From: Nannocystales bacterium
GTDB taxonomy: Bacteria; Myxococcota_A; Polyangia; Nannocystales; Nannocystaceae
Direction of reading: 5' to 3'
NCBI GenBank assembly: GCA_050633305.1
Contig: JBOEGF010000013.1
Location: 160,001-224,000 of the forward strand
DNA length: 64,000 bases
The translations under genes were made by a program, and so were the position numbers. The notes below the pieces were generated by a model. It was not told where the DNA came from and ran no database searches. It worked only from the letters and a program-made list of their open reading frames with translations. Positions 28,679 to 56,856 of the stretch are shown here, piece after piece. Within the stretch, counting starts at the first letter, position 1. Every line of letters starts with the position of its first letter.

Positions 28679-30898
28679 ATGATTCTCCAGACTCTCTTCC
28701 TGGCAGGGATTTCCGCCACCGTGCTTGCCCACTCTGCCGACGACGCCACGGTCTGCGAGGGGGACTTTGTGTCCTACGACGAGAGTCTCGAGCTCGACGC
28801 TCCGGCCAAGGACAAGTCCCCCAGCGCCGCCGTTCGTGCCGCTCAGGCCAAGAAGCAACGAGACAAGAAGGGGCCAGCCAAGAGCAAGAAAAAGAAGGGC
28901 AACGCGAAGAAGAAGAAGGGCAAACGGGTCAAACCCAAGAACATCGCCCAGGAGAAGAAGCGCAAGAAGGCAAAAGCGGACCACAAGGGCAACAAGGCCG
29001 CAAAGAGGAAGCGCAAGAAGATCAGCCGCAAGATGCCGGCTCGCGCATTCACCTCAAAAAAGAACCAGGTGAAGCTCGCGCAGCGCGAGAAGAAGGCCCC
29101 CAAGGCGGTCCGGGAGCGGCTCGCCGTGCAACGGGCGCTCATCAAGAAGAGGAACAAGCGCTATCGCGTCGCGTACACCAAGGCGCTCGAAATCCCCACG
29201 CCACTGCTGACCGGTCTCGAGCCGCTCAAGAACGCGAAGGCCGTCAAGCAGCGGCAGAACGCAAAGGCCGAGAAGAAGCTCGCTGCACTCGGAGTTGTCG
29301 GAGCGCCAAACATGATGCACCGGATGCTTCGCGCACCTGTCGTCGTCGAGCCCGATGGGCTCAAGGGAGCCCCCTCCGAAGGCAAGCGCTCGGATCACGT
29401 CGATGCTCCATTCCAGACCCCCGTCGGCGACGCCACCTGTTCGCCATCCATGACAGCGTGGAGCTGGAAGGAATACCTTGGCGAACCCCGCTCCCAGGGA
29501 TCATGCGGAAGCTGTTGGGCCTTCGCCGCGATCTCGGTATTCGAAGCTGTTGAGCGGATCGTCAATGGCCTCACGCTCGACTTCTCCGAGCAGCACATCG
29601 TCGACTGCGCGCGCGGGACTCACATCAACGGCTACGACATGGACGCCGGCTCGTGCAGCGGAGGGCAGATGTACCGGACCTTCGACTACCTCGAAGACCA
29701 CGGCGTCGCATTGGAGGACTCGATCCCGTACCAGGCGACAGAGCTCGCTTGCCAGCCCGACCAGGCCACCGAACACCGGGTGGGCGCCTGGGGCTTCGTC
29801 GATTCGTTCTACGCCGTCCCCAGCACAGACAAGCTCAAAGAGACGATCTGCCAGTATGGGCCCGCGGCGGTTGCCGTCCACGTCAACGACAGCTTCAGGA
29901 TGTATGCGGGTGGTGTCTACGACGACCACGTCGATGCGCAGGTCAACCACGCGGTCGTCATCGTCGGATGGGACGACCTTCGAGGCGCGTGGCTGATGCG
30001 CAATTCGTGGGGCACCTGGTGGGGCGAAGACGGCTACATGTGGATCGAGTACGGGGCCAACAACATCGGCGAGATGGCGGTTTGGGCCACACCAGAGTCC
30101 CCCGGCTCGGGGATGGTTTCCAAACGCAAGCGACGCAAGCTCAATATCCGAAACAAGACGGGGTCAGCGATCGAGGTCCAGGTGCAGTATCGCAACGGCA
30201 CCCGCTGGAAGCCCGCGCTGGGCTCTGGGAAGAAGACCTTGACGTATACCGTCGCCGACGGCGCGGAGGCGCTCGTGGGCATCGAGGGCAAGACCATTCG
30301 TGCCGACAAAGTCCGACTCTGGGCCAAGTCCACCAGCGGCGGTGGCAAGTGGTCGGAGTACAAGAAGAAGGACCTCGAGCTCGTTCCGGAGGGCACGTAC
30401 GCCTCCAAGACCATGCAGACGTTCGCGTACACCTTCGACGGCGACAACAAAGACGTCGGCGGGAAACCCAAGGGGGCCAGCAAGAGCAAGCGGTCCAAGA
30501 GCGAGTTGTTCGCCGCGGGCTATGGAGCGATCGACAGCGGAAAGCACACCAGGGGCCGCAACGTCCTCTCACGATATCTCGAGCGCTACCCTGGCGATGA
30601 CCGAGTTCCCGAGGTGATGTTCTGGATCGGCTACAGCCACTACGTCGAGGGCTCGTTCTACGAAGCTCTTGTCGAGTGGTACGACGTCGTCCTCGACCAC
30701 CCCGACCACGATTTCGTGGCATACGCGCTGTACTACTCCGGGCTCGCCTACGTCGAACGTGACGAGTGCGACCTTGCTCAGACCTGCTTCGATCTCGTCG
30801 CGCACGGCGGATATCCCTCCGCGACAGACGAATGGATCGACGCCGCGCAGAGCCAGATCTCCGACCTCGCGAGCAACGGCAAGAAATACTGCGGCTGA
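28679..30898 (+). CDS. Papain-family (C1A) cysteine peptidase with Lys-rich N-terminal region and C-terminal TPR domain
   Basis: QGSCGSCWAF (Cys), FSEQHIVDC, NHAVVIVGW (His), RNSWG (Asn); signal peptide; terminal YbgF-like TPR. Confidence 0.92.
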   Translation: MILQTLFLAGISATVLAHSADDATVCEGDFVSYDESLELDAPAKDKSPSAAVRAAQAKKQRDKKGPAKSKKKKGNAKKKKGKRVKPKNIAQEKKRKKAKADHKGNKAAKRKRKKISRKMPARAFTSKKNQVKLAQREKKAPKAVRERLAVQRALIKKRNKRYRVAYTKALEIPTPLLTGLEPLKNAKAVKQRQNAKAEKKLAALGVVGAPNMMHRMLRAPVVVEPDGLKGAPSEGKRSDHVDAPFQTPVGDATCSPSMTAWSWKEYLGEPRSQGSCGSCWAFAAISVFEAVERIVNGLTLDFSEQHIVDCARGTHINGYDMDAGSCSGGQMYRTFDYLEDHGVALEDSIPYQATELACQPDQATEHRVGAWGFVDSFYAVPSTDKLKETICQYGPAAVAVHVNDSFRMYAGGVYDDHVDAQVNHAVVIVGWDDLRGAWLMRNSWGTWWGEDGYMWIEYGANNIGEMAVWATPESPGSGMVSKRKRRKLNIRNKTGSAIEVQVQYRNGTRWKPALGSGKKTLTYTVADGAEALVGIEGKTIRADKVRLWAKSTSGGGKWSEYKKKDLELVPEGTYASKTMQTFAYTFDGDNKDVGGKPKGASKSKRSKSELFAAGYGAIDSGKHTRGRNVLSRYLERYPGDDRVPEVMFWIGYSHYVEGSFYEALVEWYDVVLDHPDHDFVAYALYYSGLAYVERDECDLAQTCFDLVAHGGYPSATDEWIDAAQSQISDLASNGKKYCG

Positions 30899-43808: not shown

Positions 43809-43898
43809 CGAGTGAGTGTGCCGGGTCCGGGGAAGCGGCGCCAGGGGCCTCCTGACACAGACTGTCAGCAGAGCGATGCCGGAGCTACACTGGTGGGG

Positions 43899-44465
43899 AT
43901 GTTTGCAGGGTGTCGTTGTCCACGGTGCTCGAACAGCACGCTCGCGGTTGCCACGATCGAGGGGCGCAAAGCGCTGGGCTGCCCCCACTGCTCTGGCGCA
44001 TTCGTCGGCGCCGACCTGGGCCTGCGCCTGCTCGCCGTGCTCTCCCCCGACGTCCCTCCTGCACGGGTCGGCATCCCCTCGCCCCCGTGTCCTGTGTGTC
44101 GCAAGGGCATGCGCCGGGTGGTCGCCGCGGGGCAGGATGTGGAGACCTGCAAGGTTCACGGGGTCTGGTTTGACGCGGGGGACCTTCGCCAACTGGTCGA
44201 AGCCGTCGCCGTGGCGCTTGGTAAACCCATTCCTGCGGTCGTCGAGACGCTCGAAGCGAAACAAAAATCCCCCCCGGCTGCCACTCCTGAACACAACCTC
44301 TCCGCCCCCTCTGGGCGGCGGGCTTCCGAGCCATCGGACCTCGAGATCGCGGGTGGCATTGTGGGCGAAGCGATCGACACCGTGCTCGAGCCGGTCGAAG
44401 CCGTCGCCGATGTTGTGCTCTTCCCGTTCCGCGTGGTTGGGTTGCTTAGCGAGCTGATCGACTAG
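43899..44465 (+). CDS. Double zinc-ribbon (zf-TFIIB-like) protein
   Basis: CPRC...CPHCSG and CPVC...ETCKVHGVWFDAGDL. Confidence 0.75.
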   Translation: MFAGCRCPRCSNSTLAVATIEGRKALGCPHCSGAFVGADLGLRLLAVLSPDVPPARVGIPSPPCPVCRKGMRRVVAAGQDVETCKVHGVWFDAGDLRQLVEAVAVALGKPIPAVVETLEAKQKSPPAATPEHNLSAPSGRRASEPSDLEIAGGIVGEAIDTVLEPVEAVADVVLFPFRVVGLLSELID

Positions 44466-44474
44466 CAACGCCCG

Positions 44475-44641
44475 CTAGAGCGCCGATCGGTTTGAAACGG
44501 TCTGCAGAGTGCGTCGCTGGGCGCTTTTGGCAAGGCGGGAGGCCGAAGGCGGACTGGAGGTCCGTCGAGCGCCGAGCAACGCAGCCAAAGGTGACCAGAG
44601 GGGTGCGTTGCAGGCCGAATTCAAACCGGTCGGCGCTCTAG
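44475..44641. mobile_element. Palindromic MITE-like element with CTAG at both ends
   Basis: Inverted repeat gctagagcgccgatcggtttgaa (44474-44496) / ttcaaaccggtcggcgctctagc (44620-44642), 1 mismatch; further inner imperfect IRs. Confidence 0.8.
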
Positions 44642-44730
44642 CAGAACACACGCTCTGCAATCTACGGCGATACGCGGTGGGCGTGGCTCCGCTCCATCGC
44701 ACGGAGGCCCGGGTGAAGTTGGACGCATTC
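44638..44730 (-). pseudogene. Displaced duplicate of the araC 3' end (left direct repeat)
   Basis: Encodes NASNFTRASVRWSGATPTAYRRRLQSVCSA versus NASNFTRAFVRWSGATPTAYRRRLQSACSA in the intact gene. Confidence 0.85.
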
Positions 44731-44778
44731 TGGATCCGCCAACGCCTGACGCATTCTGGATCCGCCAACGCTTGACGC
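44722..44778. repeat. 26-bp tandem duplication at the inner edge of the left direct repeat
   Basis: gacgcattctggatccgccaacgc(c/t)t twice, followed by gacgc. Confidence 0.85.
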
Positions 44779-44948
44779 GTCCCGGGAAAGCGCTCCAAAC
44801 ACCCGTTTGGAGGCAGTTAGCGTGGACTTGCGCCTACAATGACGCATCTCAAATACGACATACTGTCGCATCTTGAGCGATTTCGCGACCTTCACCTGCG
44901 GCCCTTCGAATTGCTTGGGACACTCCGGCGGGTCGCGGCAATACAGAG

Positions 44949-46370
44949 GTGCCTTCCGTGAGCCCTCCGCGCTTCACCCCCCTCATCTCCTGGCTCCTCC
45001 TCGCGCAGCTCGTGCTCGCAGGCTGTGTCACCGCCCCACACGCAAAGGACGTCCCGAGCGACCCCCTTCGCGCATTCGCGGCCTTCCTCGACGCGACCCA
45101 TCCAGCGCTCCACCGTTTCGTTGGCGCTTCCGAGTTGGAGGCGCGCGTCGACCTCGAAGTGAAGAACCTGGGCGGAGACGATGACCCCCTCGCCCTCGCC
45201 CGCGCGGCCTCACGTGTTGCAGCCGCGGTCGGGGACGCTCATCTCGCGGTGGGGTTGCCTCCGGAGGTTGCCGAAGGTTCCCTGGTGCCCTTCTTGCTGA
45301 AGCGGGCGGGCGAGCATGTGTTCCTCGACGCGTCCGAGCCCATGCTGCCGCGGGGCACCGAAGTCCTCCAGGTCGAGGGGCGGCCGGTGGGCGCGCTCTT
45401 CGAAGCGATGGCCGCGATGGCGTGCGTCGACGGAGACCGGCCCGAAGTGCGCGCGGCCGAGGTCGAACACCGCTTCGCGTTTCTCGCCCTCCTCGAACTC
45501 GGTGCCCACGAACACTACACACTCGTCGTCCGCGAACCGGGGGGAGACCCCCGAACGATTCAGCTCGAGGCGACCGATCGCGCCGGCGTCGGCCGGCTGT
45601 CTGCTCAGCGGTACTCGGCGGCCGTGTGGGGCAGCCCGCTTCCCCAAGGCGAGCCCCCTTGGCCCACGCTCACACGTATCTCGCCCACCACACAGCTCCT
45701 TCGCCTCGCGAGCTTCGGATACGAAGACGACGCGCCGTACGAAGAACGTGTCGAAGCCCTCTTCGCAACGCTGGCACCCCACGAGCGCCTCGTCGTCGAT
45801 CTTCGCGGCAACGAAGGCGGCAACAGACTGCTCGGCGTCACCGTGCTGCGGCGCTTGCTCGCGCGTCCCTTCGCGCAATGGGCAAGCGTCTCGACCCGAG
45901 TCCGCGCCATTCCTCCCGGGTTCGAAGACCTCATCGAGTTCCCCATCGTCCCAGAGGCGTCCCTCACCGGTTTTCCCGGCAAAAAGGCCGAGGGCCGATG
46001 GCTCGTCGAAGGAGACCCCCTCGCCGAGCGCATGGTCCCCGCGGCGCAGTACCACCCAGGGGAGGTCGTGCTCTTCGTCGACGCCGCCACCAACTCCGCC
46101 TCGATCGAGTTCATCGCGGCCCTGCTCGCCCATCGCGACGGCGTTCAGGTCATCGGCACCCAGACCCAAGGCGCGTGCGACCGCCACAACGGCCAACTTC
46201 CCGTGGTCTTCCAGTCGCAGTCACTCATGGTCCTCGTGTCCCTGTTCGACATCGAGTTGGTCCCAATCCCGGGATGTCGACCCGGTCACGGGGTCATGCC
46301 CGACGTCGAGGTCGTCTACTCCGAAACCGACTTCCTCGGCTCCCGAGACCCCTACCTCGACGCGCTCTAG
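44949..46370 (+). CDS. S41-family (tail-specific protease-like) peptidase lipoprotein
   Basis: LAGC lipobox; GDAH; VDLRGNEGG; ATNSAS; VIGTQTQG; GVMPDVEV. Confidence 0.85.
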   Translation: MPSVSPPRFTPLISWLLLAQLVLAGCVTAPHAKDVPSDPLRAFAAFLDATHPALHRFVGASELEARVDLEVKNLGGDDDPLALARAASRVAAAVGDAHLAVGLPPEVAEGSLVPFLLKRAGEHVFLDASEPMLPRGTEVLQVEGRPVGALFEAMAAMACVDGDRPEVRAAEVEHRFAFLALLELGAHEHYTLVVREPGGDPRTIQLEATDRAGVGRLSAQRYSAAVWGSPLPQGEPPWPTLTRISPTTQLLRLASFGYEDDAPYEERVEALFATLAPHERLVVDLRGNEGGNRLLGVTVLRRLLARPFAQWASVSTRVRAIPPGFEDLIEFPIVPEASLTGFPGKKAEGRWLVEGDPLAERMVPAAQYHPGEVVLFVDAATNSASIEFIAALLAHRDGVQVIGTQTQGACDRHNGQLPVVFQSQSLMVLVSLFDIELVPIPGCRPGHGVMPDVEVVYSETDFLGSRDPYLDAL

Positions 46371-46405
46371 CCTGTGAAGCCCCCGAAGGCGCCCCCCGGG
46401 GTTCA

Positions 46406-46570
46406 TTCGGCCGCGCCGACGAAGCCCGCGAGGCCCTCGCCGGCCCGCTCACCCACGCCAACGCGTTCGGTGTACTGAGCGAAGACGTCGGTCCGCGCAC
46501 CGAGACGCTGTGGGGCAACTTCCCGCGGACGAGCTTCCACGCCGGCGCATCAACACAGTTTTTGCGTTGA
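46406..46570 (+). pseudogene. C-terminal fragment of a glycoside hydrolase family 15 gene
   Basis: FGRADEAREAL...ANAFGVLSEDVGPRTETLWGNFPRTSFHAG matches the GH15 terminal motif (GLLSED...LWGNFPQ..SH.G); no start or upstream part. Confidence 0.7.
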
Positions 46571-46604
46571 GTGCGGTGATGGGACCCACCCTGTAGGGGG
46601 CGCA

Positions 46605-47753
46605 TCAGCGGGCCTCGATGCGAACCTCGCGGCTCCGTCCGTCACGGTCGTAGACGAACGTGCCGGCGGGGTGGGTCAGCAGCCGCTCGAGGACCGCCGA
46701 CAGCGACTCCTGATCGGTCAGCGCCTTGCCGTCGACCGACCGAAGGATGTCCCCATTGCGCAGACCGACCGTGGCGGCGAGATCGGTGCTCGCCTCCTCC
46801 CGATCGAACCCCTCCAGTCGAATCCCCGGATAGCCAGGCTCGGCCGGGTCGAGCAGTCGGAGCAGTGCGCCATCAGCTTCGACCACGCTGGCTGCAGCAA
46901 ACACGCTGTCGATGAGCGCAGGGTCGTACGTGCACGAAGTCTGGGCCTGGTTGCAATGGACGAGCTCGGCGAGCGGGCCGAACGGCGCGACTTCGCCTTC
47001 ATCCGCACCACCCGAACCTTCGTCCGCCCCACCCGAACTCTCATCCGCGCTCGAGCTCCCATCGTCTCCCGACGAATTCGGAGGCACGCCGCCGGACGTG
47101 GAGGAGCTCTCGTCCCCGCCGCCCGTAGCGTCCTCCGTGTCCGAGCCCTGCGGGGGCGGGTTCTTGTAGTAGTAGCACCAACCGTCTGCACCCTTTGCGT
47201 ATGAGCCGGAGTTCTCGGAAATCGGGCGCACGTACTCCTCACCCATGTCCAGGTCGAGGTAGCGAGCGCGAGTCGGGTTCTGCAGGTACGCGCGGCAGAC
47301 GATGTCCGCGGTATGGCTGGTACAGTTGATGTCTTCGTCAGAGAGATAGACGACGCATTCGTCGTGCATTTGCGCCACCATTGTCTCGATGACCCCCGTG
47401 TAGTAGTTCTGATCAGCTGCAGGCATCGAGGAGCCGACGCCGGCCTCGATCGCAGTCATCATGTGATCGAGTCTCTGGAGGTCGGCCTGGTCGGAGATCT
47501 CTGTCTGTCCGGAATGGACTTGCTCGACCGCGCCGACTTCATCTTCGAGGTTGATCTCGAAACCGCTCGAGGCGTCCACGCACCGAAGAGCCAAGTCCGC
47601 TGGCAGCAGCTCGTCATTGAGAGGTGCGCTGCCAAACATCATTCCGCTCACCGAGTAGGTTTTCTCATAGCAGATGACGTTTGGAACGAGGCAGGCGGTG
47701 GCCATGAGGCCAAGGAGTGAGATACTCAGGGTTCTGGTTGTTTGGGTGCTCAT
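46605..47753 (-). CDS. Lipoprotein with C-terminal PDZ-like domain
   Basis: LMATAC lipobox; Ser/Gly/Asp linker; VGLRNGDILRSVDG...YDRDG. Confidence 0.75.
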   Translation of the reverse strand: MSTQTTRTLSISLLGLMATACLVPNVICYEKTYSVSGMMFGSAPLNDELLPADLALRCVDASSGFEINLEDEVGAVEQVHSGQTEISDQADLQRLDHMMTAIEAGVGSSMPAADQNYYTGVIETMVAQMHDECVVYLSDEDINCTSHTADIVCRAYLQNPTRARYLDLDMGEEYVRPISENSGSYAKGADGWCYYYKNPPPQGSDTEDATGGGDESSSTSGGVPPNSSGDDGSSSADESSGGADEGSGGADEGEVAPFGPLAELVHCNQAQTSCTYDPALIDSVFAAASVVEADGALLRLLDPAEPGYPGIRLEGFDREEASTDLAATVGLRNGDILRSVDGKALTDQESLSAVLERLLTHPAGTFVYDRDGRSREVRIEAR

Positions 47754-47798
47754 CTCGCGACTTCCTGTTGCGAAAGCTTGTGGTGTTGTTTGTGCGAT

Positions 47799-48212
47799 CT
47801 AATCGCGGTATTCGCCCTGGCAATCTCCGTATGCCTCGCTCGTTGCGACGCACGGCGTTTCCGAGATTCGCGCCGGGTTGTTGGTGATGATCCAGCGTGC
47901 GTCGCAGGAGGAAGCGGCCGCACATTCGTAGTGCTTCGTGAACTCCTCACCGCACGCGTCGGTTCCATCGTCCTGGAGGAACCAGTACTCCGCGTCTTCC
48001 GACAGACAGAGGTCCATGCAGTCCTGCCTGGTCTCGTAGAACTCCACGTCGGAACCACACTCCGGATCCAAGACCAGGTCACAGAAGACCTCGCACGCGG
48101 GACGCCGTCGCTCGAAGGTTCGAACCTCCTCTTCTTCCTCCACTTGCGGGCCGCACGCGCCAAGGGCCATGACGAGAGGAAGGGCGTGTTGGAAGAGATT
48201 GCGGCGGTTCAT
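47799..48212 (-). CDS. Cys-rich acidic lipoprotein
   Basis: ALGAC lipobox; many Cys in CxxxC pairs; GGAG upstream. Confidence 0.72.
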   Translation of the reverse strand: MNRRNLFQHALPLVMALGACGPQVEEEEEVRTFERRRPACEVFCDLVLDPECGSDVEFYETRQDCMDLCLSEDAEYWFLQDDGTDACGEEFTKHYECAAASSCDARWIITNNPARISETPCVATSEAYGDCQGEYRD

Positions 48213-48876
48213 TGGAACTCCTGTATGGGCCGGCAGCATACGCGGTCATGCAGTCGTGGACCATTCATGCCACCTCGGAGCCGGGGTGGCACTCCGGAAA
48301 CGAGGTTGGGGTCGCCTGTCCGCACGTCCCCGTAGGTGTTGACATACCCAGAACCGGCCCGCGGTTCGAAACGTAGGCCCCCCTGTTGAGATGAGATCGG
48401 TCTTGGGCCCACTTGGACTGAAGGACTACGATTCGAGGCGAACCACCTGCAGCGTCGCTTCGTTGGGCGGTGTCCGAGCGTCGGCCCAAAGGTGAATCAT
48501 CCCGCCTTCGTTGAGCGCCCGGACTGTGAGCCGTTCAAAATCGAAGGCGCCGCTTGGAATGTGAACGTCGAAGCCGTGCAGGATCCCGCGGCCGTAGTCG
48601 CCGTCGAGCTCGTCGATGACGAACCGAACCCGGCTCGCTGGGGTGTTGTCGGTCTTCGTTCTCCTCACCAAGGACGTGGAACTGAGACAGCCCGGACGCG
48701 GCGCCGCCAGCTGTGGGGTGCCAGATCGTGGCGCTGTGCCGACCCTCGTCCGCCCGGCGGACGGGCTCGGCGGCGGCGACCACGGAGGGAAGGGATACAG
48801 ACCATGTCGACCCTGTTCCCGAAGGCACGAGAACGTTCCCGCCCGTTGACGCCCCAGGTCGTCGTGCCGACGTGGG

Positions 48877-49245
48877 ATGGCCGCGCTCGTGGCCCGCAGC
48901 GCCTCGCCCGACCGAGTCGTCGCCAGCCGGGTCGCCGAGACGCTCCGGGGCCTGTCGCTCGATACCTATCTGCGGCTGAGCCGGGAGATCGCGACCTATG
49001 ACTACCGACCGACGCTGCAACGCAGCACGGCGCCCTACCTCTTGCTGCGCGGGGAGAAGGAACGCAGCATCAACGCCGCACTCGCCTCGACTCTGGCCGT
49101 GGTCGACGTTCACCCCACGGCCCGGTGCATGGAGCTGGCGAAGGCTGGGCACTTCGCGAACCTCGAGGTCCCGGAGGCTTTCGAGCGAGCGCTCCAGGAC
49201 TTCTGGAGCTCGCTCGATCCCGCAGCCGACGCGGCGATGACGTGA
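48877..49245 (+). pseudogene. C-terminal fragment of an alpha/beta-hydrolase
   Basis: PYLLLRGEKE...ELAKAGHFANLEVPEAFERALQDFW (catalytic His region); upstream portion frameshifted or absent. Confidence 0.65.
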
Positions 49246-49347
49246 ATCGTCGCCCGCAACGTGCCACTCCCTGCGCGCGTGGCTCCGTACGTTCGCATGC
49301 CGACTCCGCTTTCCTGGCTGGTTTTCTCCCAGCTGTTGCGCGAGGCG

Positions 49348-49896
49348 CTAGAGCTGAACGAGCTCGACGGACAGCTTGTCCTCGCCGAAGTCCGGGTCGC
49401 AGGCCCGACCGAACCATTGGGCGGAGATCGACGCGTTGACCTCTACGAGCTCGACGACCTGACCTTCGGCGAGTTCGGCGACGGAGACCTGAACGACCTC
49501 CGCCTCGGTACAGCGCCTTCCGGAAGAGTCCAAGTCTGCCTCGGCGACGAGCGCAATCGAGTGCCAGTTGCCGAGATCGTTGCGGGCCCAATCGACGTTT
49601 GTGTGAACCAACTCGTCGCCATCGGGTTCGAGCGCAAGCGACTCGACGGTGAGTTCGACGCTGCTGCCACCATTCGTGAACGCGCGTAAGCTGAATCTTC
49701 CGCTGACTGTCAGGCCGTGGGGCGGCTCTCCGGTCGCGCACAGCGTGACCTCGAACGCGGTGACGGGGGCGTCGGCGGTGAGCATCGCGGGTTCGGCCGA
49801 CGCCGACACGCTCGCGCCCCCGCCGGGCTCGCAGGCCCCCGCGAAGAACATCGCCACGAGAGAACCTTTGAGAATCTTCCGGATGCGGTTGACCAT
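49348..49896 (-). CDS. Lipoprotein of unknown function
   Basis: MVNRIRKILKGSLVAMFFAGAC lipobox. Confidence 0.65.
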   Translation of the reverse strand: MVNRIRKILKGSLVAMFFAGACEPGGGASVSASAEPAMLTADAPVTAFEVTLCATGEPPHGLTVSGRFSLRAFTNGGSSVELTVESLALEPDGDELVHTNVDWARNDLGNWHSIALVAEADLDSSGRRCTEAEVVQVSVAELAEGQVVELVEVNASISAQWFGRACDPDFGEDKLSVELVQL

Positions 49897-50191
49897 GACG
49901 GACGCCACGATTCGATAGTAGCCGGCGGCCGCCAAACGATCACGCGAGCGGTGGAATATGCGCCACCGCGCTGTTTTCCGTCATCCGAAGCAACTCCCTC
50001 CGCGAGTGCTTTGACGAAGGCAACCATTCTCGAGCGGCGTGGTGTTGGCCGGGACGATCGTGCGGGCGCGGGGATGACGAGCGCAAGCGGCACGGGCTGC
50101 GCCTACTCCCGCGGGGCGAGGGGTGAAGAGGGAGCGCAGGGCGTGGTGTCCTGCGAGGATGCCGTAGTACCTCTCGACTCTCGGCGCTCAA

Positions 50192-50249
50192 AGTGAAACG
50201 AGCAGGGGAAAGCCGGCAGCGGCATCGGCGCAGATGGCCGGAGACGAGT
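50192..50249. repeat. Copy of the element's transposase-downstream non-coding sequence
   Basis: 58-bp near-identical to 53286-53343, with a 41-bp exact core aaagccggcagcggcatcggcgcagatggccggagacgagt. Confidence 0.85.
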
Positions 50250-50517
50250 AAGAATGGCGAGCAGCTAAAGGACTTCAATGGAGTTGCCGCAGAACTCCGC
50301 GGGGTTAGGTTCACAAAGCCCGGCGGGGGGAACTGGGACCACATCACGGAGATGGAACAGAGCGTTGTTGGGCTGGAAAAAGCGGTCCGCGAACTCCAAG
50401 GAAGCCTGCGAAACCCCAACTTGGCCCCGGCTGCGGCTTCTCTAATTCGTGAGACAATAGCAAGGGCCGAGACGGTGACTTCGCAAAATGCCTGCTACCC
50501 TTGCTGGCGGCGTCTGA
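50250..50517 (+). pseudogene. Orphan polymorphic toxin C-terminal fragment, Ntox28 (CdiA-CT EC536-like tRNase)
   Basis: DFNGVAAELRG...KPGGGNWDHITEMEQS..GL...LQGSLRNPNL; 5' truncated; apparent 1-nt insertion near 50478. Confidence 0.75.
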
Positions 50518-50528
50518 GGGAATGTGTC

Positions 50529-51026
50529 ATGAGTGCACCGGGGTATCGTAGGATTCATCACGAGCTGATGAGTGGTGATGTCGACCGTACGCTGGACGCT
50601 TTATTTCTGATAGGTGGACGGACCGACACTCCTCCGCCCCCGGAGGTTGTGGCTTGTTGCAATCGGCTGATGCGTCACTTTGATGAGGATGTCCGAATTC
50701 AGAGCATAATGGCGGTCGGGATTCATTGGGCGAGTTCCATGTCGCTAGATTCGCTGCTGGAGGTGGCTTCTCTGGACGATCTGGTTGAGGTTCGAACTGC
50801 TGCCGTGCGAGCTCTTACTCGCTATGCGGAATCGAAGAAGGAGGACGTGTGTAGGGTGCTCGCGAGAATTGCGGCGGAGCCTAGCGAGGATCCGGGCTTG
50901 CGTGCGGTGGCATACATTGGCCTCCTCCGCGCGGAGGGCCTTATTACGGCTCGCGAAAAAGCCAGTCTTCCGCAGGATATAGGCTCTCTAGAGGTCGATG
51001 AGCGACTGCTCCGTCGCTGGGTATGA
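50529..51026 (+). CDS. HEAT-repeat protein, probable cognate immunity protein
   Basis: ATG preceded by GAGGGA; DEDVRIQSI, LVEVRTAAVRAL, DPGLRAVAY HEAT-like units; directly follows the toxin fragment; lower GC. Confidence 0.7.
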   Translation: MSAPGYRRIHHELMSGDVDRTLDALFLIGGRTDTPPPPEVVACCNRLMRHFDEDVRIQSIMAVGIHWASSMSLDSLLEVASLDDLVEVRTAAVRALTRYAESKKEDVCRVLARIAAEPSEDPGLRAVAYIGLLRAEGLITAREKASLPQDIGSLEVDERLLRRWV

Positions 51027-51496
51027 CAGGCGACGGCCAATCGCCGACCCCAGCACCCCGCAGTCAATCGTCGCAACGCTCGGGCTGGCCGCCATCGCAC
51101 CACACGATGGCGCAGCCAACAGTTGAGCCACACTCCCCCCTGTGTTGTCCTCGCAGACGTCTCCGATGTCCTCCCCTACACACAGGCTGCTACGGAAGAG
51201 CACGATCTCGCTCACCGTCTCGGACGATTCAGGAGAAACTCGAAAGCTCCGATACCCCGTGTAGGAGAGGAAACCGTCTTGGTCGCACCGAGGCTGCGAA
51301 AACACGACAGACGTCGGATGCTCGTCCTGGGAGTCGTCGAGGCGGATAGTGCCGTCATCCTGCTTGATCCACGTTACGGGCAGTTCTGTCTCGTCGCAAC
51401 CCAGGGATACAACGAGGGGCTCACCATTGGGCCGCAGCTCGTAGCGCAACCCTCCTACATCCACGAACCACCTGGTCTCGGCAAGGTCACCGTCTG
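50988..51496 (-). pseudogene. 5'-truncated Cys-containing secreted-type protein fragment
   Basis: Open frame begins directly at transposase-associated sequence (~51497) with no signal peptide or good start. Confidence 0.45.
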
Positions 51497-52044
51497 ATGC
51501 CGACGCGCTCGCGAGGAGCGAGAGCGTGATGGGGCCAGAGCTCAGGCCAGAAACAACATCAGCTGTCCGCGAGGTGAGGGTCGCGGTGGGGGCCGAGCGG
51601 CATCCAGCGCTTCGGCTATTTCATCGGGGCTGCTCACCGCACGGGCCACCCGCATCGGACCTTGGCACCGCTGCCAAACCGAGACGTCGAACCGGAAGAC
51701 CCGGGCGAGCAAGCTCATCCACGAGAGCCGACGCGGCGCAACATCGAGCAGCTGTTTGTCGAGGGCCGGCCCGGTGTTGGCTGTGAGCTCGAGCTGGCCT
51801 TGCGGGACAAACAACGAGAGCTGCTTGGGCGGGATGCTCGTGGCCTCCGGCGTGGGGACGACGCGAGCGCGCAGCGCGTGCCGGGGGCAAGAGCGCCGTA
51901 GTACCAAACGGTGTGGGCACCCGGCGGAGGCACCAGGGCACACAACCGAGCCAAGAACCGCTCGGGGCTCATCTGGGCATAGGTGGCTCCATTTCGGCTG
52001 GGCCTCTTGAAGTGGACGCGGACCTGTCCGTCGGTGGTCCGCTG
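51497..52044 (-). mobile_element. ISCR/IS91-like transposase remnant C (3' part plus downstream non-coding sequence)
   Basis: RTTDGQVRVHFKRP...FLARLCALVPPP..H..YYG...RLSWMSLLARVF...RPPPRP..GQLMLFLA*; frameshifted. Confidence 0.85.
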
Positions 52045-52174
52045 TCGCATCGGGGTCGCCGACGAGCAGCAGGTCGATGGAAGTGTCTTTGGAGACCGCA
52101 GCGGCGGCCTCCATCGTGACCGCGGCTCCTTGGTCCCCTCCCATCACGTCCAGCGCGACCCGAGTTTCCGTCAT
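52045..52174 (-). pseudogene. plsX: N-terminal fragment of phosphate acyltransferase PlsX fused to the transposase remnant
   Basis: MTETRVALDVMGGDQGAAVTMEAA...LLLVGD matches the PlsX N-terminus (IALDAMGGD...ILVGD). Confidence 0.75.
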
Positions 52175-52275
52175 CGGGCAGAGTGTACCGCTGCTGTCGG
52201 GGTACCATTGGGGGGATGGAGGGATCGGCCGATGCTGCTCCGTCTGAGTCGGACCTGCCCTCTGAGGCGTACGGC

Positions 52276-53058
52276 TCAACCGTCCGACGCATCCGTCGTG
52301 ATCAGGTCTGACAATGCGTCGACGACCTCGGTCCCCGTTCCCTCTCGGGCAACCTGACAGACGTCGCTGAAATCGTACGACGCAAAGCCGCCGCGGACTG
52401 AGAGTACTGTCGCCCGCTGCTCAACCTTGCGCGAAGTCTCCCACTCGATCGGTTCTTCGCCCCACCCCCACACGCAGACGGCGCCAACGTGCCCGCGAAC
52501 CTCCTGTTCTTGGGACACATCCAATGACTCAGGATCGGTTCCGCAAATACAGGCACCTCGCCCGAAACCGACCCGTTCATGGCGACTTGGGACCCAGAAA
52601 TCCACCCGCTCTTCGATGCTCCCGCCCTGGATGCACTCGAACCGAGAGAACCCTCGGTCGCGATGCGTTTCTACGCAGATTCCATCATCCCAGGGAACAA
52701 AGGCGCGGTCGCGCAGCCTCTCAACCGGACCCGACTGGAAACGAGTCCAGAAGAACACGTTGCGACAGTCCACCCCCCGCGCATCAGAGACGACGCAAAC
52801 GCACCGTCCCGCTTGGACGACGCCGTGTCGGCGCAGGTCCGCCGCCCCGCCCCGCAGCGAAGTCTTGATGGAGCGATCGACTCCAATGCCTCGGCGGCGG
52901 CACTCAACCTGAGTCCTCCCGGCCACGGCACACGACAGCTCCTCCTTCGCCTGAAGGTCCTCCGTCACGCGAACCCGTACGCACCCCGACGAGGGCCCGA
53001 AGACACCAATCACGGCGAACGCGAGAGACGATGCGGTGTACGACCAACGTTCGATCAT
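52276..53058 (-). CDS. Hypothetical Cys-rich exported protein
   Basis: N-terminal hydrophobic stretch and SGC; repeated C-x-C pairs. Confidence 0.5.
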   Translation of the reverse strand: MIERWSYTASSLAFAVIGVFGPSSGCVRVRVTEDLQAKEELSCAVAGRTQVECRRRGIGVDRSIKTSLRGGAADLRRHGVVQAGRCVCVVSDARGVDCRNVFFWTRFQSGPVERLRDRAFVPWDDGICVETHRDRGFSRFECIQGGSIEERVDFWVPSRHERVGFGRGACICGTDPESLDVSQEQEVRGHVGAVCVWGWGEEPIEWETSRKVEQRATVLSVRGGFASYDFSDVCQVAREGTGTEVVDALSDLITTDASDG

Positions 53059-53285
53059 GACGCAGGCTCGAGAATACTATCCTCGATCGGCCCCGAACGT
53101 TCCGGGGCCCCTTGGGCAGCCCACGCCGCCCTGTCGGTCGACCGGAGCGTCGCAAAGGCGTAGCCCCTCTCGCGCGTCGACGACGAGCAAGGTTTGGCCG
53201 CCATCTCGGCTTGTCTTCGCACACCTCCTTTCGAGGAACCCAATGGCGCAGGACGCTAAGGACATGCGGGTGGCACGGTCGCTTG

Positions 53286-54036
53286 AGTGAAACTAGCTGG
53301 GAAAAGCCGGCAGCGGCATCGGCGCAGATGGCCGGAGACGAGTCACAGGCAACGCGGACGGTGCCCACCGGAGCCGCGCTGAGGACAGAACCGGGCGCGC
53401 CGAGGGCCGGATGGGCGTCTGAGGGACGCTCGAGGAGTTCCGTAGTGTGCCAATGCCCGTACGGATGCCGACCCGCTCGCGAGAGCGAGGGCGTGATAGG
53501 GGCCAGAGCTCAGGCCAGATACAACATCAGCTGTCCGCGAGATGAGGGTCGCGGTGGCGGCCGAGCGGCATGCAGCACTTCGGCGATTTCATCGGAGCAG
53601 GTCACCGCACGGACCACCCGCATCGGGCCCTGGCACCGCTGGCAAACCGAGACGTCGAACCTCGAGCTGGCCTTGCGGGACAACCAACGAGAGCTGCTTG
53701 GGCTCGATGTTCGTGGCCTCCGGCGTGGGGATGATGCGAGCGCGCAGAGCGTGCCGGGGCGCGAGAACGCCGTAGTACCGGACGGTGTGGGCACCCGGCG
53801 GAGGGACCAGGGCACACAACCGAGCCAAGAAACGCTCGGGGCTCATCCGGGCACACGTGGCTCCACTTCGGCTGGGCTTCTTGAAGTGGACGCGGACCTG
53901 TCCGTCGGTGGTCCGCTGCACGGCACCGAGCGCAAACGGGGGACGCAGCAGATAGCGACAGACCCGTTCGAGACGCTTTCGGTCGCGACCATCGACACAG
54001 ACGGCGGCATGAAGCTGCATGGCGAAGCCCGAGACA
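53286..54036 (-). mobile_element. ISCR/IS91-like transposase remnant B with ~95-bp internal deletion and downstream end region
   Basis: MQLHAAVCVDGRDRKRLERVCRYLLRPP...HTVRYYGVLAP; deletion at 53660/53661 relative to copies A and C; stop at 53510. Confidence 0.85.
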
Positions 54037-54160
54037 GACGGAAGTGTCGCTGACCGAGGTTGCGAGCAACAGCAAAGTCCTCGGTACCGATGACCGCATC
54101 ATTGAGCCCGACGATGTCGGGGAGCCCGTCTCCGTCGAAGTCGTGGACCAGGATCCGTCC
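54037..54160 (-). pseudogene. FG-GAP repeat fragment joined to transposase remnant B
   Basis: LVHDFDGDGLPDIVGLN...VARNLG. Confidence 0.55.
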
Positions 54161-54420
54161 CTCGAGGAGGCTGAAGACTCTCGGACCGGGACCGAGCTCG
54201 TGCACCCGGGTCCCGCCCAGTGGGCTGCATACCTCTTCCACCAGCCGCCAGAGCTCCTCGCGCAGTGACCTATCGCCGAACGCGGCATTCATCGGTGTCT
54301 GATCCACCAGCTCCCCAGCGCCCTGCCCTCGGGTGCCCCGATGATGTCGCCGCTGTTCCCGATCGTCCGCTCGAGGCAATCGGCGTACTTGCGTGCGCCA
54401 TCCCGTGGACTCTGAGCCTT

Positions 54421-55260
54421 CCACCCGCATCGGGCCCTGGCACCGCTGGAAAACCGAGACGTCAAACCGGAAGACCCGGGCGAGCAAGCTCATCCACGAG
54501 AGCCGATCCGGCGCAACATCGAGCAGCTGTTTGTCGAGGGCCGGCCCGGTGTCGGCCGCGAGCTCGAGCTGGCCTTGCGGGACAAACAACGAGAGCTGCT
54601 TGGTCGGGATGTTCGTGGCCTCCGGCGTGGGGACGACGCGAGCGCGCAGGACGTGCCGGGGGGCAAGAACGCCGTAGTACCGAGCTGTATGGGCACCGGG
54701 CGGAGGGACCAGGGCACACAACCGAGCCAAGAACCGCCCCGGGCTCATCTGGGCGTAGGTGGCTCCATTTCGGCTGGGCCTCTTGAAGTGGACGCGGACC
54801 TGCCCGTCGGCGGTGCGCGCCGCGGCACCCAGCGCAAACGGGGGACGCAGCAGATAGCGGCAGACGCGTTCGAGCCGCTTTCGGTCGCGACCATCGACAC
54901 AGACGGCGGCATGAAGCTGCATGCCGAAGCCCGAGACAAGCATCGGTTCGATGGCACAGGGCGGGGTGCGCACGGGCCCAGGGCCAAGTCCGGATAACCC
55001 GAGCTCGACGCATGCCGCGACGCCATCCTCGGCCGGCTCGCCTTCGTCAACGGCACACTCGGCGAGGTCCGCGTACAGGCGCTGCAGCGTGCCCAAAAGG
55101 TGCTCTCCACCCAGCTGCTCAGTCGGCCAGAAGCGAACCTCCTGCGCGTCGTCCTCGGGAGCCTCGAAGCAACCGTCGGTCCCCAACGCGTGCAGGTGCA
55201 CGAACAACCCGACGTCACTGCGGCGACCGCCTGAACACTCGCCGTTTCAGAACCTCGAGT
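54421..55260 (-). mobile_element. ISCR/IS91-like HUH transposase remnant A (5'- and 3'-truncated)
   Basis: VHLHALGTDG (HUH), GFGMQLHA, LERVCRYLLRPP (catalytic Tyr), FLARLCALVPPP, HTARYYGVLAP. Confidence 0.88.
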
Positions 55261-55267
55261 ATCAGGC

Positions 55268-56401
55268 CTATCTACCGCCCCGTGGCCTCCTACCCACCCG
55301 TGCTGATCGACTAGCAGAACACGCGCTCTGCAATCTACGGCGATACGCGGTGGGCGTGGCTCCGCTCCATCGCACGAAGGCCCGGGTGAAGTTGGACGCG
55401 TTCTCGAAGCCCAGGCTGTGCCCGACTTCGGCGACAGACAGATTCGTCGACTTGAGGAGTTCGCATGCCCGCTCGTACTGGAGCTCGCGGCGAAGCGCCT
55501 CGAAGCGAAATCCACGTTCACGCAACCTCCGAGAAAGGGTGCGCTCGCTGAGACTCAGCTCCGAGGCCACCTCGGCGAGGGAGAGGTCGAGGGCAGGAGC
55601 CCGCAACACGGACCGGCGGACGAGTGCTTCGATCTGCGGTCGCTCGACGACCCGGTCGAGCGCTGAGTCGCAGCGTTTGGACAGCAACGCTCGCATCGTC
55701 CGATTGGCCAGCGCGTAGGGTTGGTCCAGAAAGTCCGAACCCAAGATGACGCGGCACCGCGCGTGCCCGAAGGAGACCCGAGAGCCCAAGACCCCACGAT
55801 GACACGTCAAGTCGTCTGGCTGGGCGTAGGCGAGCTCGTAGCGCGGGGGCGTGTGCTTCGCGTTGCTGTTGAGCAGCTCGACATTTCGCGCCATGCCCCC
55901 GAGCAAGAGCTCGTACTTGAGCCGCGACTCGACCGTGTGCGGCGCGCAGCTCTGTCGTAGCTCAATGGACGCATCGCCATCGTCGTGCCAGTGCAGACGC
56001 AGCTGGGTGCCGCAGCTGAGGATCTCGTAGAACTTGCACAGGCGGGGCAACGCGTCCCGACCATTGGTGCAGGCTTGGAGGAGCAGTCCCAGCTCGCCGA
56101 TCGCAGGAAAACTGAACTGCTGGCCGAGCGCCAACCAGAAGGCGGAGTCATCGCGCTGCTCCGCAATGGCCATCAGCAGACTGGTGTAGGCCTGAGCCGA
56201 AGCCCGTGCATCGGGGACCTCGAACTGCGTCCGCTGAAGGCCGAGGCGCTGCAGCCATGGCCGCGTCTCGATCCCGACATCATCAGCAAACCGAGCCACG
56301 ATCGCGACGTGGCAGTACGGGACCGTCCGCGTATCGGTAGCGACCCGCGCTTCGGCTGCGTCCGTCGAGTTGGGGGGAGGTTGGCGGGCGAGGACTGACA
56401 T
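55268..56401 (-). CDS. AraC-family transcriptional regulator
   Basis: N-terminal ligand domain (GELGLLL...ALPRL); SLAEVASELSLSERTLSRRL; VAEVGHSLGFENASNFTRAFVRWSGATPTAYR. Confidence 0.92.
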   Translation of the reverse strand: MSVLARQPPPNSTDAAEARVATDTRTVPYCHVAIVARFADDVGIETRPWLQRLGLQRTQFEVPDARASAQAYTSLLMAIAEQRDDSAFWLALGQQFSFPAIGELGLLLQACTNGRDALPRLCKFYEILSCGTQLRLHWHDDGDASIELRQSCAPHTVESRLKYELLLGGMARNVELLNSNAKHTPPRYELAYAQPDDLTCHRGVLGSRVSFGHARCRVILGSDFLDQPYALANRTMRALLSKRCDSALDRVVERPQIEALVRRSVLRAPALDLSLAEVASELSLSERTLSRRLRERGFRFEALRRELQYERACELLKSTNLSVAEVGHSLGFENASNFTRAFVRWSGATPTAYRRRLQSACSASRSARVGRRPRGGR

Positions 56402-56495
56402 TTGGCGGACGAGGAGCGTTGCAGGCGAGGGGCCAGCTCGTAGCTTCAGACCAGAAGATAGACGCTCCCAACGAGCTTTCAAGACAGGACCACCC

Positions 56496-56846
56496 GTGAA
56501 TCCAACGTTCATTCTCGGCGGACTTCTTGCGGCGTCGGCTCCCCTCAGCGGCTTCGACGAGCCCCCGAAGACCCAGCCCATCATCGACCAAACCTCACTC
56601 CAAACCCCTCGCGTTCGGGCCGCGTTGCGGGCCACTGAAACCCGCTACAAGGCGACGTGTCGCGATACCGCACTGGGGCGACCGCAGATGTTCCTGTTGT
56701 GGACGCTGCAATGGGCGTCCGCAGAGTGCCCGTTCGTCGACGACCCGAGCCGGGGTGTGCGCGTGACGTTCCGATTCGCGCAGATGCTCGATGGCACCGT
56801 CGACCTCCGGCGAACCCGGGTTCGCCTGATCGACCTCGCGCGATGA
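56496..56846 (+). CDS. Small exported hypothetical protein
   Basis: GTG start after AGGA; signal-like TFILGGLLAASA. Confidence 0.5.
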   Translation: MNPTFILGGLLAASAPLSGFDEPPKTQPIIDQTSLQTPRVRAALRATETRYKATCRDTALGRPQMFLLWTLQWASAECPFVDDPSRGVRVTFRFAQMLDGTVDLRRTRVRLIDLAR

Positions 56847-56856
56847 ATGCAGCCGT

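Follow-up and report, generated by a model that had tools for sequence, protein, structure and literature searches.

The transposase of IS91 nicks its element at the origin end (ori) and becomes covalently linked to the 5′ end, and synthesis proceeds from the 3′-OH (PMC5714925, PMC13181058). Around ISCR1, the variable region lies on the side of this end, termed oriIS (PMC6218425), with partial duplicates of the 3′-conserved segment (3′-CS) behind it (PMC3575428), a layout that the model of Toleman, as relayed in PMC7707992, ascribes to two transpositions plus recombination. Units in which two copies of ISCR2 enclose cargo are common (PMC7722449), and for ISCR28 a ‘sandwich’ has been described, in which a remnant with an extra oriIS lies beside a captured gene (relayed by bioRxiv 10.1101/2025.01.22.634252). 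Right-end miniatures of IS801 start at a tetranucleotide (PMC3189936), and further background on the group is given in PMC13393415 and PMC5737581. Here we analyse a stretch of 64,000 nucleotides from a Nannocystales bacterium (G000:C13:160001-224000, hereafter the window, in an 11-Mb genome of ~65% GC), which contains five remnants of an ISCR-type transposon, A to E, all on the minus strand, among pieces of other genes.

The geometry of this array is known from ISCR1 and ISCR2; the new part is a mechanistic reading in one step. On balance, we lean slightly towards the view that a single-tyrosine ISCR-type element of the HUH class would have built the window’s array by adding DNA at its own oriIS in one step. 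As a more tentative proposal, which we would not press as hard, ISCR-type transposases in general may take up DNA at their own origin in a single step. A preliminary description of the window had recognised that foreign DNA accretes repeatedly next to the element, with junctions tied to it, and our analysis bears this out. It had also invoked rolling-circle read-through and suggested a possibly undescribed diversification hotspot. Simple read-through past terIS does not account for the cargo, which lies on the side of oriIS with an ori end before it and a truncated duplicate behind it, and ISCR1 complex integrons and ISCR2 structures already show this geometry.

Clinical examples are few and filtered by drug selection. 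In the myxobacterial arrays, dozens of events can be studied that no selection has filtered; their donors are traceable and empty, some stubs are very short, bare tandem duplicates occur, and the mechanism is constrained accordingly. If the proposal is right, one-step capture would replace the two-transposition-plus-recombination model for the oriIS-side genes of ISCR1 and ISCR2, and the arrays would record, layer by layer, which foreign DNA had come into the cell. The literature searched yielded no paper on such arrays in myxobacteria or on re-sealing in one step, a weak negative given the many subscription papers outside its coverage.

Comparison with described systems

The downstream end resembles that of ISCR2, which terminates in ...TTCCTATACGT, compared with ...TTCCTATACGC in G007 and ...TTCGCTTAAACGC in the family of the congeners G002 and G004. 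Plasmid NZ_ON390809.1 carries ISCR2, cargo and a truncated ISCR2, with same-strand, 5′-truncated copies behind the cargo, and an ISCR2 plasmid contains a 103-bp tandem duplicate of the ori end (L180:11857-11959), with variable bases after ori. The present arrays differ in consisting of unselected chromosomal scrap, in running to 13 or more units, in having 11-bp stubs and in having intact donors within the same genome. They are like ISCR1 in having a variable oriIS side followed by a partial duplicate of the DNA left of ori. Unlike ISCR1, they have no integron or 3′-CS, and the duplicates mostly end inside the element; moreover, empty donors and very short duplicates fit the circle-plus-recombination scheme badly. 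No class 1 integron 3′-CS flanks remnant A, whose left flank is the 3′ end of an araC-type gene (no search was aimed at integrase or attC).

IS91, IS801 and IS1294 belong to the same Pfam family and likewise have right-end fragments of variable length (PMC3189936), but a tetranucleotide marks both their insertion sites and their termination points (PMC13181058, PMC3189936), and no such motif is present at the seams here. Since the bases after ori also vary in the ISCR2 plasmid, the absence of this motif does not set the arrays apart from ISCR2. IS91 has two catalytic tyrosines, Y249 and Y253 (PMC5714925), whereas the present transposase has one, and here the stubs do not split a pre-existing locus. 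The mechanism of ISCR28 (Yuan et al. 2024) may overlap with the one-step reading. Helitrons are HUH rolling-circle elements that carry gene fragments (PMC5714925), and the likeness to them is an analogy only: the 496-aa protein here is ISVsa3-like from end to end, without a helicase and without a terminator hairpin, and cargo accretes in place.

The element and its putative origin end

Near-intact copies in congeners measure ~1.84 kb and contain a frame of ~495 aa. The intact congener transposase matches that of ISVsa3/ISCR2 at 31% identity over 96% of its length (E 3e-67), with the N-terminal Cys, HxH and CRYxxRP motifs aligned and CRYLLRPP opposite CRYISRPA. With Pfam Y2_Tnp, the element’s transposase scores 66 bits (cut-off 20.9). 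A single catalytic tyrosine in the CRYxxRP motif defines ISCRs, and this motif contains one Tyr here; with its HUH motif and 31% identity to ISCR2/ISVsa3, the element is ISCR-like, as the preliminary description had called it. NCBIfam ISCR clade Ia (NF052416) gives 214 bits for the intact congener protein, short of its cut-off of 925, and canonical IS91 (NF033538) gives 83.8 bits, short of 125. Judged from its sequence, the element appears to work like ISCR2 and to have the main ISCR features, while lying outside NCBIfam clade Ia and canonical IS91.

The closest taxon-titled relatives of the transposase are in Nannocystaceae, Sandaracinaceae and Myxococcales records, and the element has a match in 29 of the 40 relatives searched, G000 included (31 in G001, 63 in G002 and 45 in G004). 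The genomes are incomplete bins. G000 holds 96 merged pieces that fall into two subfamilies. Small remnants are also present on contig C13 outside the window, at 244313-244400 and 28725-28920. On another contig of this genome (G000:C63:4565-6046), a 494-aa open frame fuses a different N-terminal part, which we take to be RAYT/Y1-transposase-like, to the C-terminal half of the ISCR transposase; it goes with a 1.95-kb insert flanked by a 57-bp exact duplication.

The downstream end, to which we assign the putative oriIS from its position and its likeness to the ISCR2 end, is exact, with the sequence ...TTTCGCTTAAACGC in the commoner subfamily and ...TTTCACT(C/T)RAGCG in the window’s subfamily. 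Beyond 91 exact ori ends there are no preferred bases (the commonest following 4-mer accounts for 6 of the 91), while 27 stub starts show 21 different 4-mers and no motif; a target tetranucleotide was thus found at neither seam in these two sets. G000 has no unbroken gene of the window’s subfamily, and the left ends of near-intact copies are variable, include an 8-bp tandem repeat and share no sharp common end. There are no long inverted repeats in the array, and no fixed target duplication accompanies the element. A hairpin at ori was not found, all five ori-region folds being no better than shuffles (z −0.6 to 0.7), with just a short terminal palindrome. The 407 bp to the left of the copies on G004:C27 were considered as a part of the element and rejected, as they are gene sequence and are absent from other copies.

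Young arrays in two congeners

Young arrays were sampled from 890 kb of G002 and G004 stretches around copies and donors, a sample biased towards copies. Their units follow one rule: an element that ends at ori is followed by cargo, then by a copy of the left neighbour’s ori-proximal part that again ends at ori, and then by older flank. Among 143 pieces, 92 reach ori, 20 reach the left end and 13 reach both, that is, 79 have ori only and 7 the left end only. The density of ori-bearing stubs falls from 18 per 100 bp below 100 bp to 0.5 per 100 bp at 1200-1600 bp, with a second peak at full length, and the shortest stubs measure ~11-19 bp. Neighbouring pairs lie on one strand in 82 of 109 cases. 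The stretch that holds a stub also holds its nearest relative in 40 of 72 cases (6.8 expected), 39 of them on the same strand. Seams other than ori fall at random positions, with 0-5 bp of microhomology.

The length of an array can be 13 units or more, spread over ~65 kb (G002:C18). Four duplicates (98.3-99.8% identical) extend beyond the stub or element into the older flank or cargo and still end at ori, and there are bare tandem duplicates of the ori end, six clear ones in G002 and two probable ones in G002 and G004. The two flanks of a stub belonged together in none of 11 comparisons, the right flank never continuing the donor of the left flank (five of the 11 were made with G000 orthologues, ~74-87% identical, and one with a plsX orthologue at 90%, instead of the true donors). 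On this result we reject the reading of the stubs as inserted mini-elements.

Between positions 91901 and 137719 of the same contig (G002:C18:91901-137719), older minus-strand stubs, some of them 96-98.5% identical to G004 copies, are interleaved with the young plus-strand array. Two other genera also have same-strand, ori-anchored arrays, L040 (G007) and L038-L039 (G009), with ends ...TTCCTATACGC and ...CTCTTAAGCGC; in G009 there is a 2758-bp duplicate at 99.9% that includes the left flank, as well as a 60-bp bare tandem ori duplicate. A record titled Rickettsiales (L161:11588-17886) contains a relative at 35% identity and, on the same strand, two exact end stubs of 57-59 bp, which repeat its downstream end 1.3 and 6.2 kb farther on.

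Donors of the captured DNA

Three cargo pieces could be traced to donors at ~100% identity. In G002, a piece of 925 bp (G002:C18:126558-127482) is 100% identical to G002:C17:275778-276702 and fills the entire gap between the ori of a near-intact copy and the next stub; microhomology at either end is no more than 1 bp. A second piece, of 539 bp (G002:C18:139552-140090), is 100% identical to G002:C12 and begins at ori with 5 bp of microhomology. The third, of 1592 bp (G004:C27:92498-94089), is ~100% identical to G004:C39 and adjoins a duplicate with 3 bp of microhomology. All three donors are free of the element at the junction points; the donor region on G004:C39 has element scraps at 793.4 and 797.1 kb, none at these points, and an element match was found in 0 of 8 donor stretches.

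A further cargo of 7.8 kb in G002 is 97-99% identical to G004 DNA, while G002’s own orthologues are at 77-81%. It starts at ori with 0 bp of microhomology, ends at an 11-bp stub and holds a 410-bp segment that is absent from G004. In G000, at least 8 pieces that adjoin remnants have counterparts at 83-96% identity elsewhere in the genome. We read the cargo as DNA sampled without selection, and nothing suggests a selected library; the cassette-like library of the preliminary description finds no support, since most cargo is cut mid-gene and the window’s copies drift neutrally.

Proposed capture in one step and its alternatives

We propose that the transposase would nick at ori and hold the 5′ end, and that host polymerase would then begin rolling-circle synthesis from the 3′-OH and copy a variable length of the element. 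The nascent strand would switch template to other DNA in the cell, which could be chromosomal or have arrived from a congener, or would join a loose fragment. Its 3′ end would be sealed to the ori end held by the transposase, and replication would fix the insertion. Without template switch or fragment joining, the product would be a bare tandem duplicate of the ori end. By such a route, ori would stay exact while the far seams fell at random; stub lengths would decay, sister copies would lie nearby on the same strand, duplicates could take in older cargo, and donors would go untouched. We infer this mechanism from the arrays, and it fits the empty donors better than the two-transposition-plus-recombination model does.

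Several observations weigh against this proposal. In the young arrays, 51 of the 143 pieces lack ori, 27 of the 109 neighbouring pairs are opposed, and the nearest relative is in another stretch for 32 of the 72 stubs. The partner lies upstream in just 10 of 19 cases, and 100% cargo comes after a near-intact copy in one place and after a mid-array stub in another, two findings that leave strict polarity of the CRISPR-like kind, with the newest cargo by the intact copy, unsupported. For most cargo, no donor could be traced in the genomes searched (the matches of a 15-kb spacer were all at 69-76%), and many spacers are mosaic, with the youngest piece at the stub’s left end instead of at ori. On G004:C27, the cargo is ~100% identical to its donor and the flanking duplicate 98.7%, a poor fit to one event. 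In the window, 7 sites tie single copies to the copy on contig C63 of G000, against 5 that tie window copies together; the window copies are 91-93% identical to each other and 94-95% identical to the C63 copy; and there are just two ori junctions and no intact copy. Finally, a 105-bp duplication surrounds the window’s block without an ori anchor and is left unexplained by the ori model, indicating that host illegitimate recombination is also able to insert DNA with a duplication.

Some of these points are better served by a two-step route of the Toleman type, in which a truncated ori copy would first insert by the cargo; a second rolling-circle event from its ori would read into the cargo and form a circle, which would enter the array by homologous recombination or ori-to-ori exchange. 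The layout would come out alike, but this route predicts occupied donors and calls for homology or a functional origin in the stub. It explains young cargo at the left end of a stub as well as the 32 of 72 stubs with their nearest relative elsewhere, and does better on the 98.7% duplicate beside 100% cargo on G004:C27. It is also the published account for ISCR1 complex integrons (PMC7707992), and IS801 yields right-end miniatures at high frequency (PMC3189936). Copy-out should, however, leave a stub at the donor, and all three ~100% donors are empty. In addition, RecA recombination would need more than the 11-32 bp that some stubs offer, and an origin probably would as well; with contiguous flanks in 0 of 11 stubs, no product of the first step is seen. 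We therefore regard the two-step route as unlikely, although it is the alternative that survives best.

Less probable still is a graveyard of insertion sequences, in which independent insertions in a neutral island were trimmed by random deletions and illegitimate recombination, leaving junctions with no particular tie to the element. Such a history would be enough for about half of the window’s own junctions and agrees with cargo-cargo joins that contain no element DNA and with the location of the block in a 13-kb island missing from G001, G002 and G006; most genomic IS801 fragments were judged to be rearrangement products by Bardaji et al. (PMC3189936). Random trimming, on the other hand, gives neither the polarity of 79 against 7, nor a decay of length from one base, nor same-strand local sisters, and it leaves host DNA copied exactly between ori and stub unexplained.

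An artefact of assembly or binning, with element repeats gluing together unrelated contigs or species, is very improbable. In its favour, the bins are incomplete, cross-species cargo could equally come from chimeric joins, and the one window junction that is bridged (51495/6, by a contig of run X1 that spans 51255-51560 with 1 difference) is bridged by a run that possibly represents the source sample. Against it, the window copies are 7-9% apart and too divergent to collapse; joins occur at many points inside the element instead of at the edges of repeats; the G004-like cargo is 1-3% different from G004 and has the extra 410-bp segment; and other genera show the same geometry, as does an annotated plasmid. 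The chimeric assembly that the preliminary description had raised as a concern is thus countered at this one junction; X1 contains 0.37 of the sampled words, and the remaining window junctions are unbridged among the 8 of 55 X1 pieces listed, where coverage is patchy and uncovered junctions are uninformative.

The worn array in the window

The window holds an old, eroding array, a worn specimen of what is seen in G002 and G004. Remnants A, B and C each score above the Pfam Y2_Tnp cut-off, and their identities are 90.7% over 376 bp (A/B), 93.0% over 398 bp (A/C), and 92.6% over 258 bp and 91.5% over 199 bp (B/C). The segment 50192-50249 is 94.8% identical to 53286-53343, and all these likenesses are far above what chance would give. 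Three diverged same-strand transposase copies and an extra copy of the non-coding end had been reported in the preliminary description, and both observations are confirmed; the count of four copies omitted a fifth remnant, E. Placed against the copy on C63 of G000 as reference, the junctions at 54036/7, 52044/5, 51495/6 and 50249/50 are base-sharp, the third lying one base from where it had been put (51496/7). All other junctions are likewise sharp against this copy, and several of the limits first given change: A ends at 55223 instead of 55260, B runs to ~53280 and D to ~50184.

Remnant A (54421-55223, minus strand) is a mid-transposase piece with the HLH and CRYLLRPP motifs, and its ori end is missing. 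At 55223/4, a deletion of ~820 bp joins the transposase to a non-coding 5′ leader piece (55224-55302, minus strand), which is found upstream of the same element family in C63 and C9. The leader piece was also considered as the ori end of a third element, a reading that found no support, as three other copies show it continuing into one and the same 5′ region. In five other copies, this leader precedes a different frame, the start of which we take to be Rpn/YhgA-like. The same leader, at ~130 bp, is the one that precedes the window’s element family and is repeated in clusters (G000:C55, C56, C66, C70 and C63:19033) ahead of frames that start VTKTPHDALFKSVF and are presumably Rpn/YhgA-like.

Remnant B (53280-54036, minus strand) is a 5′-truncated duplicate of the 54421-54938 span of A with a 95-bp internal deletion; it extends beyond the stop codon to the ori end at ~53280, with the terminus ...TTTCACTCAAGCG. 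The CAAG beside B was tried as an IS91 target and dismissed: it belongs to the conserved terminus, and the bases beyond the terminus are random. Remnant C (51496-52044, minus strand) is a 5′-truncated duplicate without its ori end, and D (50184-50249, minus strand) is a 66-bp ori-end stub. Joined directly to the ori end of D is remnant E (50030-50183, minus strand), a transposase piece from a more distant ISCR relative (70-75% identity). A weak likeness to an ori end is also present at 44770-44790. Read by the unit rule of the young arrays, B would be an ori-bearing duplicate of the right part of A behind cargo, and C a duplicate behind the cargo of B.

The window’s ten junctions comprise 2 ori ends, 3 cargo-to-stub joins, 2 internal deletions, 2 element-to-cargo joins and 1 edge of an inserted block. 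By this tally, not all of the junctions are captures; the two element-to-cargo joins are best read as later deletions. Under one-step capture, A and C would have lost their ori ends to later random deletions, which would also have brought cargo pieces together. Private substitutions by codon position are 5/6/6 in A, 2/4/3 in B and 3/4/2 in C, against 6/1/14 in a G001 copy, and this even distribution, unlike that in the G001 copy, suggests that A, B and C decayed as dead DNA. One site is common to A, B and C only and two more to A and C, which weakly suggests local common descent of the window copies.

Captured pieces in the window

Two of the window’s spacers are mosaic, with several cargo pieces each. 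Between A and B, a 3′ piece of a short-chain dehydrogenase gene (54200-54420, minus strand; frameshifted, 81% over 43 aa) is fused, with no element DNA in between, to an internal piece of an FG-GAP repeat gene (54037-54196, minus strand; 69% over 54 aa). The preliminary description had noted the FG-GAP piece and missed the dehydrogenase. Directly after the ori end of B come ~220 bp (53059-53279) with no homologue in G000 or six congeners. They are followed by an apparently whole gene of 260 aa (52276-53058, minus strand), for which 3 of 4 homologues are 73-84% identical over 99-100%; it has no Pfam match, and its atlas matches are all below 0.8.

The piece next to C contains the 5′ part of plsX with upstream DNA (52045-52238, minus strand) and is 90% identical to the host plsX. 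Over 43 codons it differs by 6 synonymous changes and 1 non-synonymous change, a pattern suggesting that the donor was a functional orthologue in a different lineage. Its join to C has 0 bp of microhomology. The search for donors that the preliminary description had outlined succeeded for plsX, through this match in the host; the other window spacers have no close donor in G000 or the six congeners.

On the far side of C lies a piece of an exported-protein gene (50988-51495, minus strand; ~177 aa), 73% identical to residues 45-161 of the 178-residue P0010, truncated at both ends and continuing into unrelated sequence. Next to D is the tip of a putative interbacterial polymorphic toxin gene, Ntox28-like (50250-50532, plus strand), which is cut at the junction with D and is in one frame with a HEAT-repeat gene (50529-51026, plus strand; HEAT_2, E 4.5e-9). 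From its position, the HEAT gene is probably the immunity partner of the toxin tip. The toxin call, already made in the preliminary description, depends on an Ntox28 match at E 3e-4, which is under the Pfam cut-off, and on one homologue at 41%. A structure search matched no solved structure.

The island and its flanking repeats

The array lies in 13 kb (43872-56850) between the genes for an Lhr helicase and a LamG-domain protein, and this island is absent from G001, where the two genes are 33 bp apart, and from G002 and G006. Within it, a 105-bp direct repeat (96% identical) flanks the whole block of 10.6 kb (44735-55302), in the manner of a target duplication of unusual length. Its first copy (55303-55407) is the 3′ end of the araC-type gene, which has AraC domains by Pfam, and its second copy (44455-44468 and 44638-44734) is interrupted by a 169-bp multicopy repeat (44469-44637). 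This interrupting repeat has 18 matches in G000 and CTAG-containing bounds and is MITE- or REP-like (resembling miniature inverted-repeat transposable elements or repetitive extragenic palindromes). At the inner edge of the 105-bp repeat there is a 26-bp tandem repeat (44722-44773). The block also contains a PDZ-domain gene and a Cys-rich lipoprotein-like gene (46605-48239), with homologues in G004 and G006 at 66-73%.

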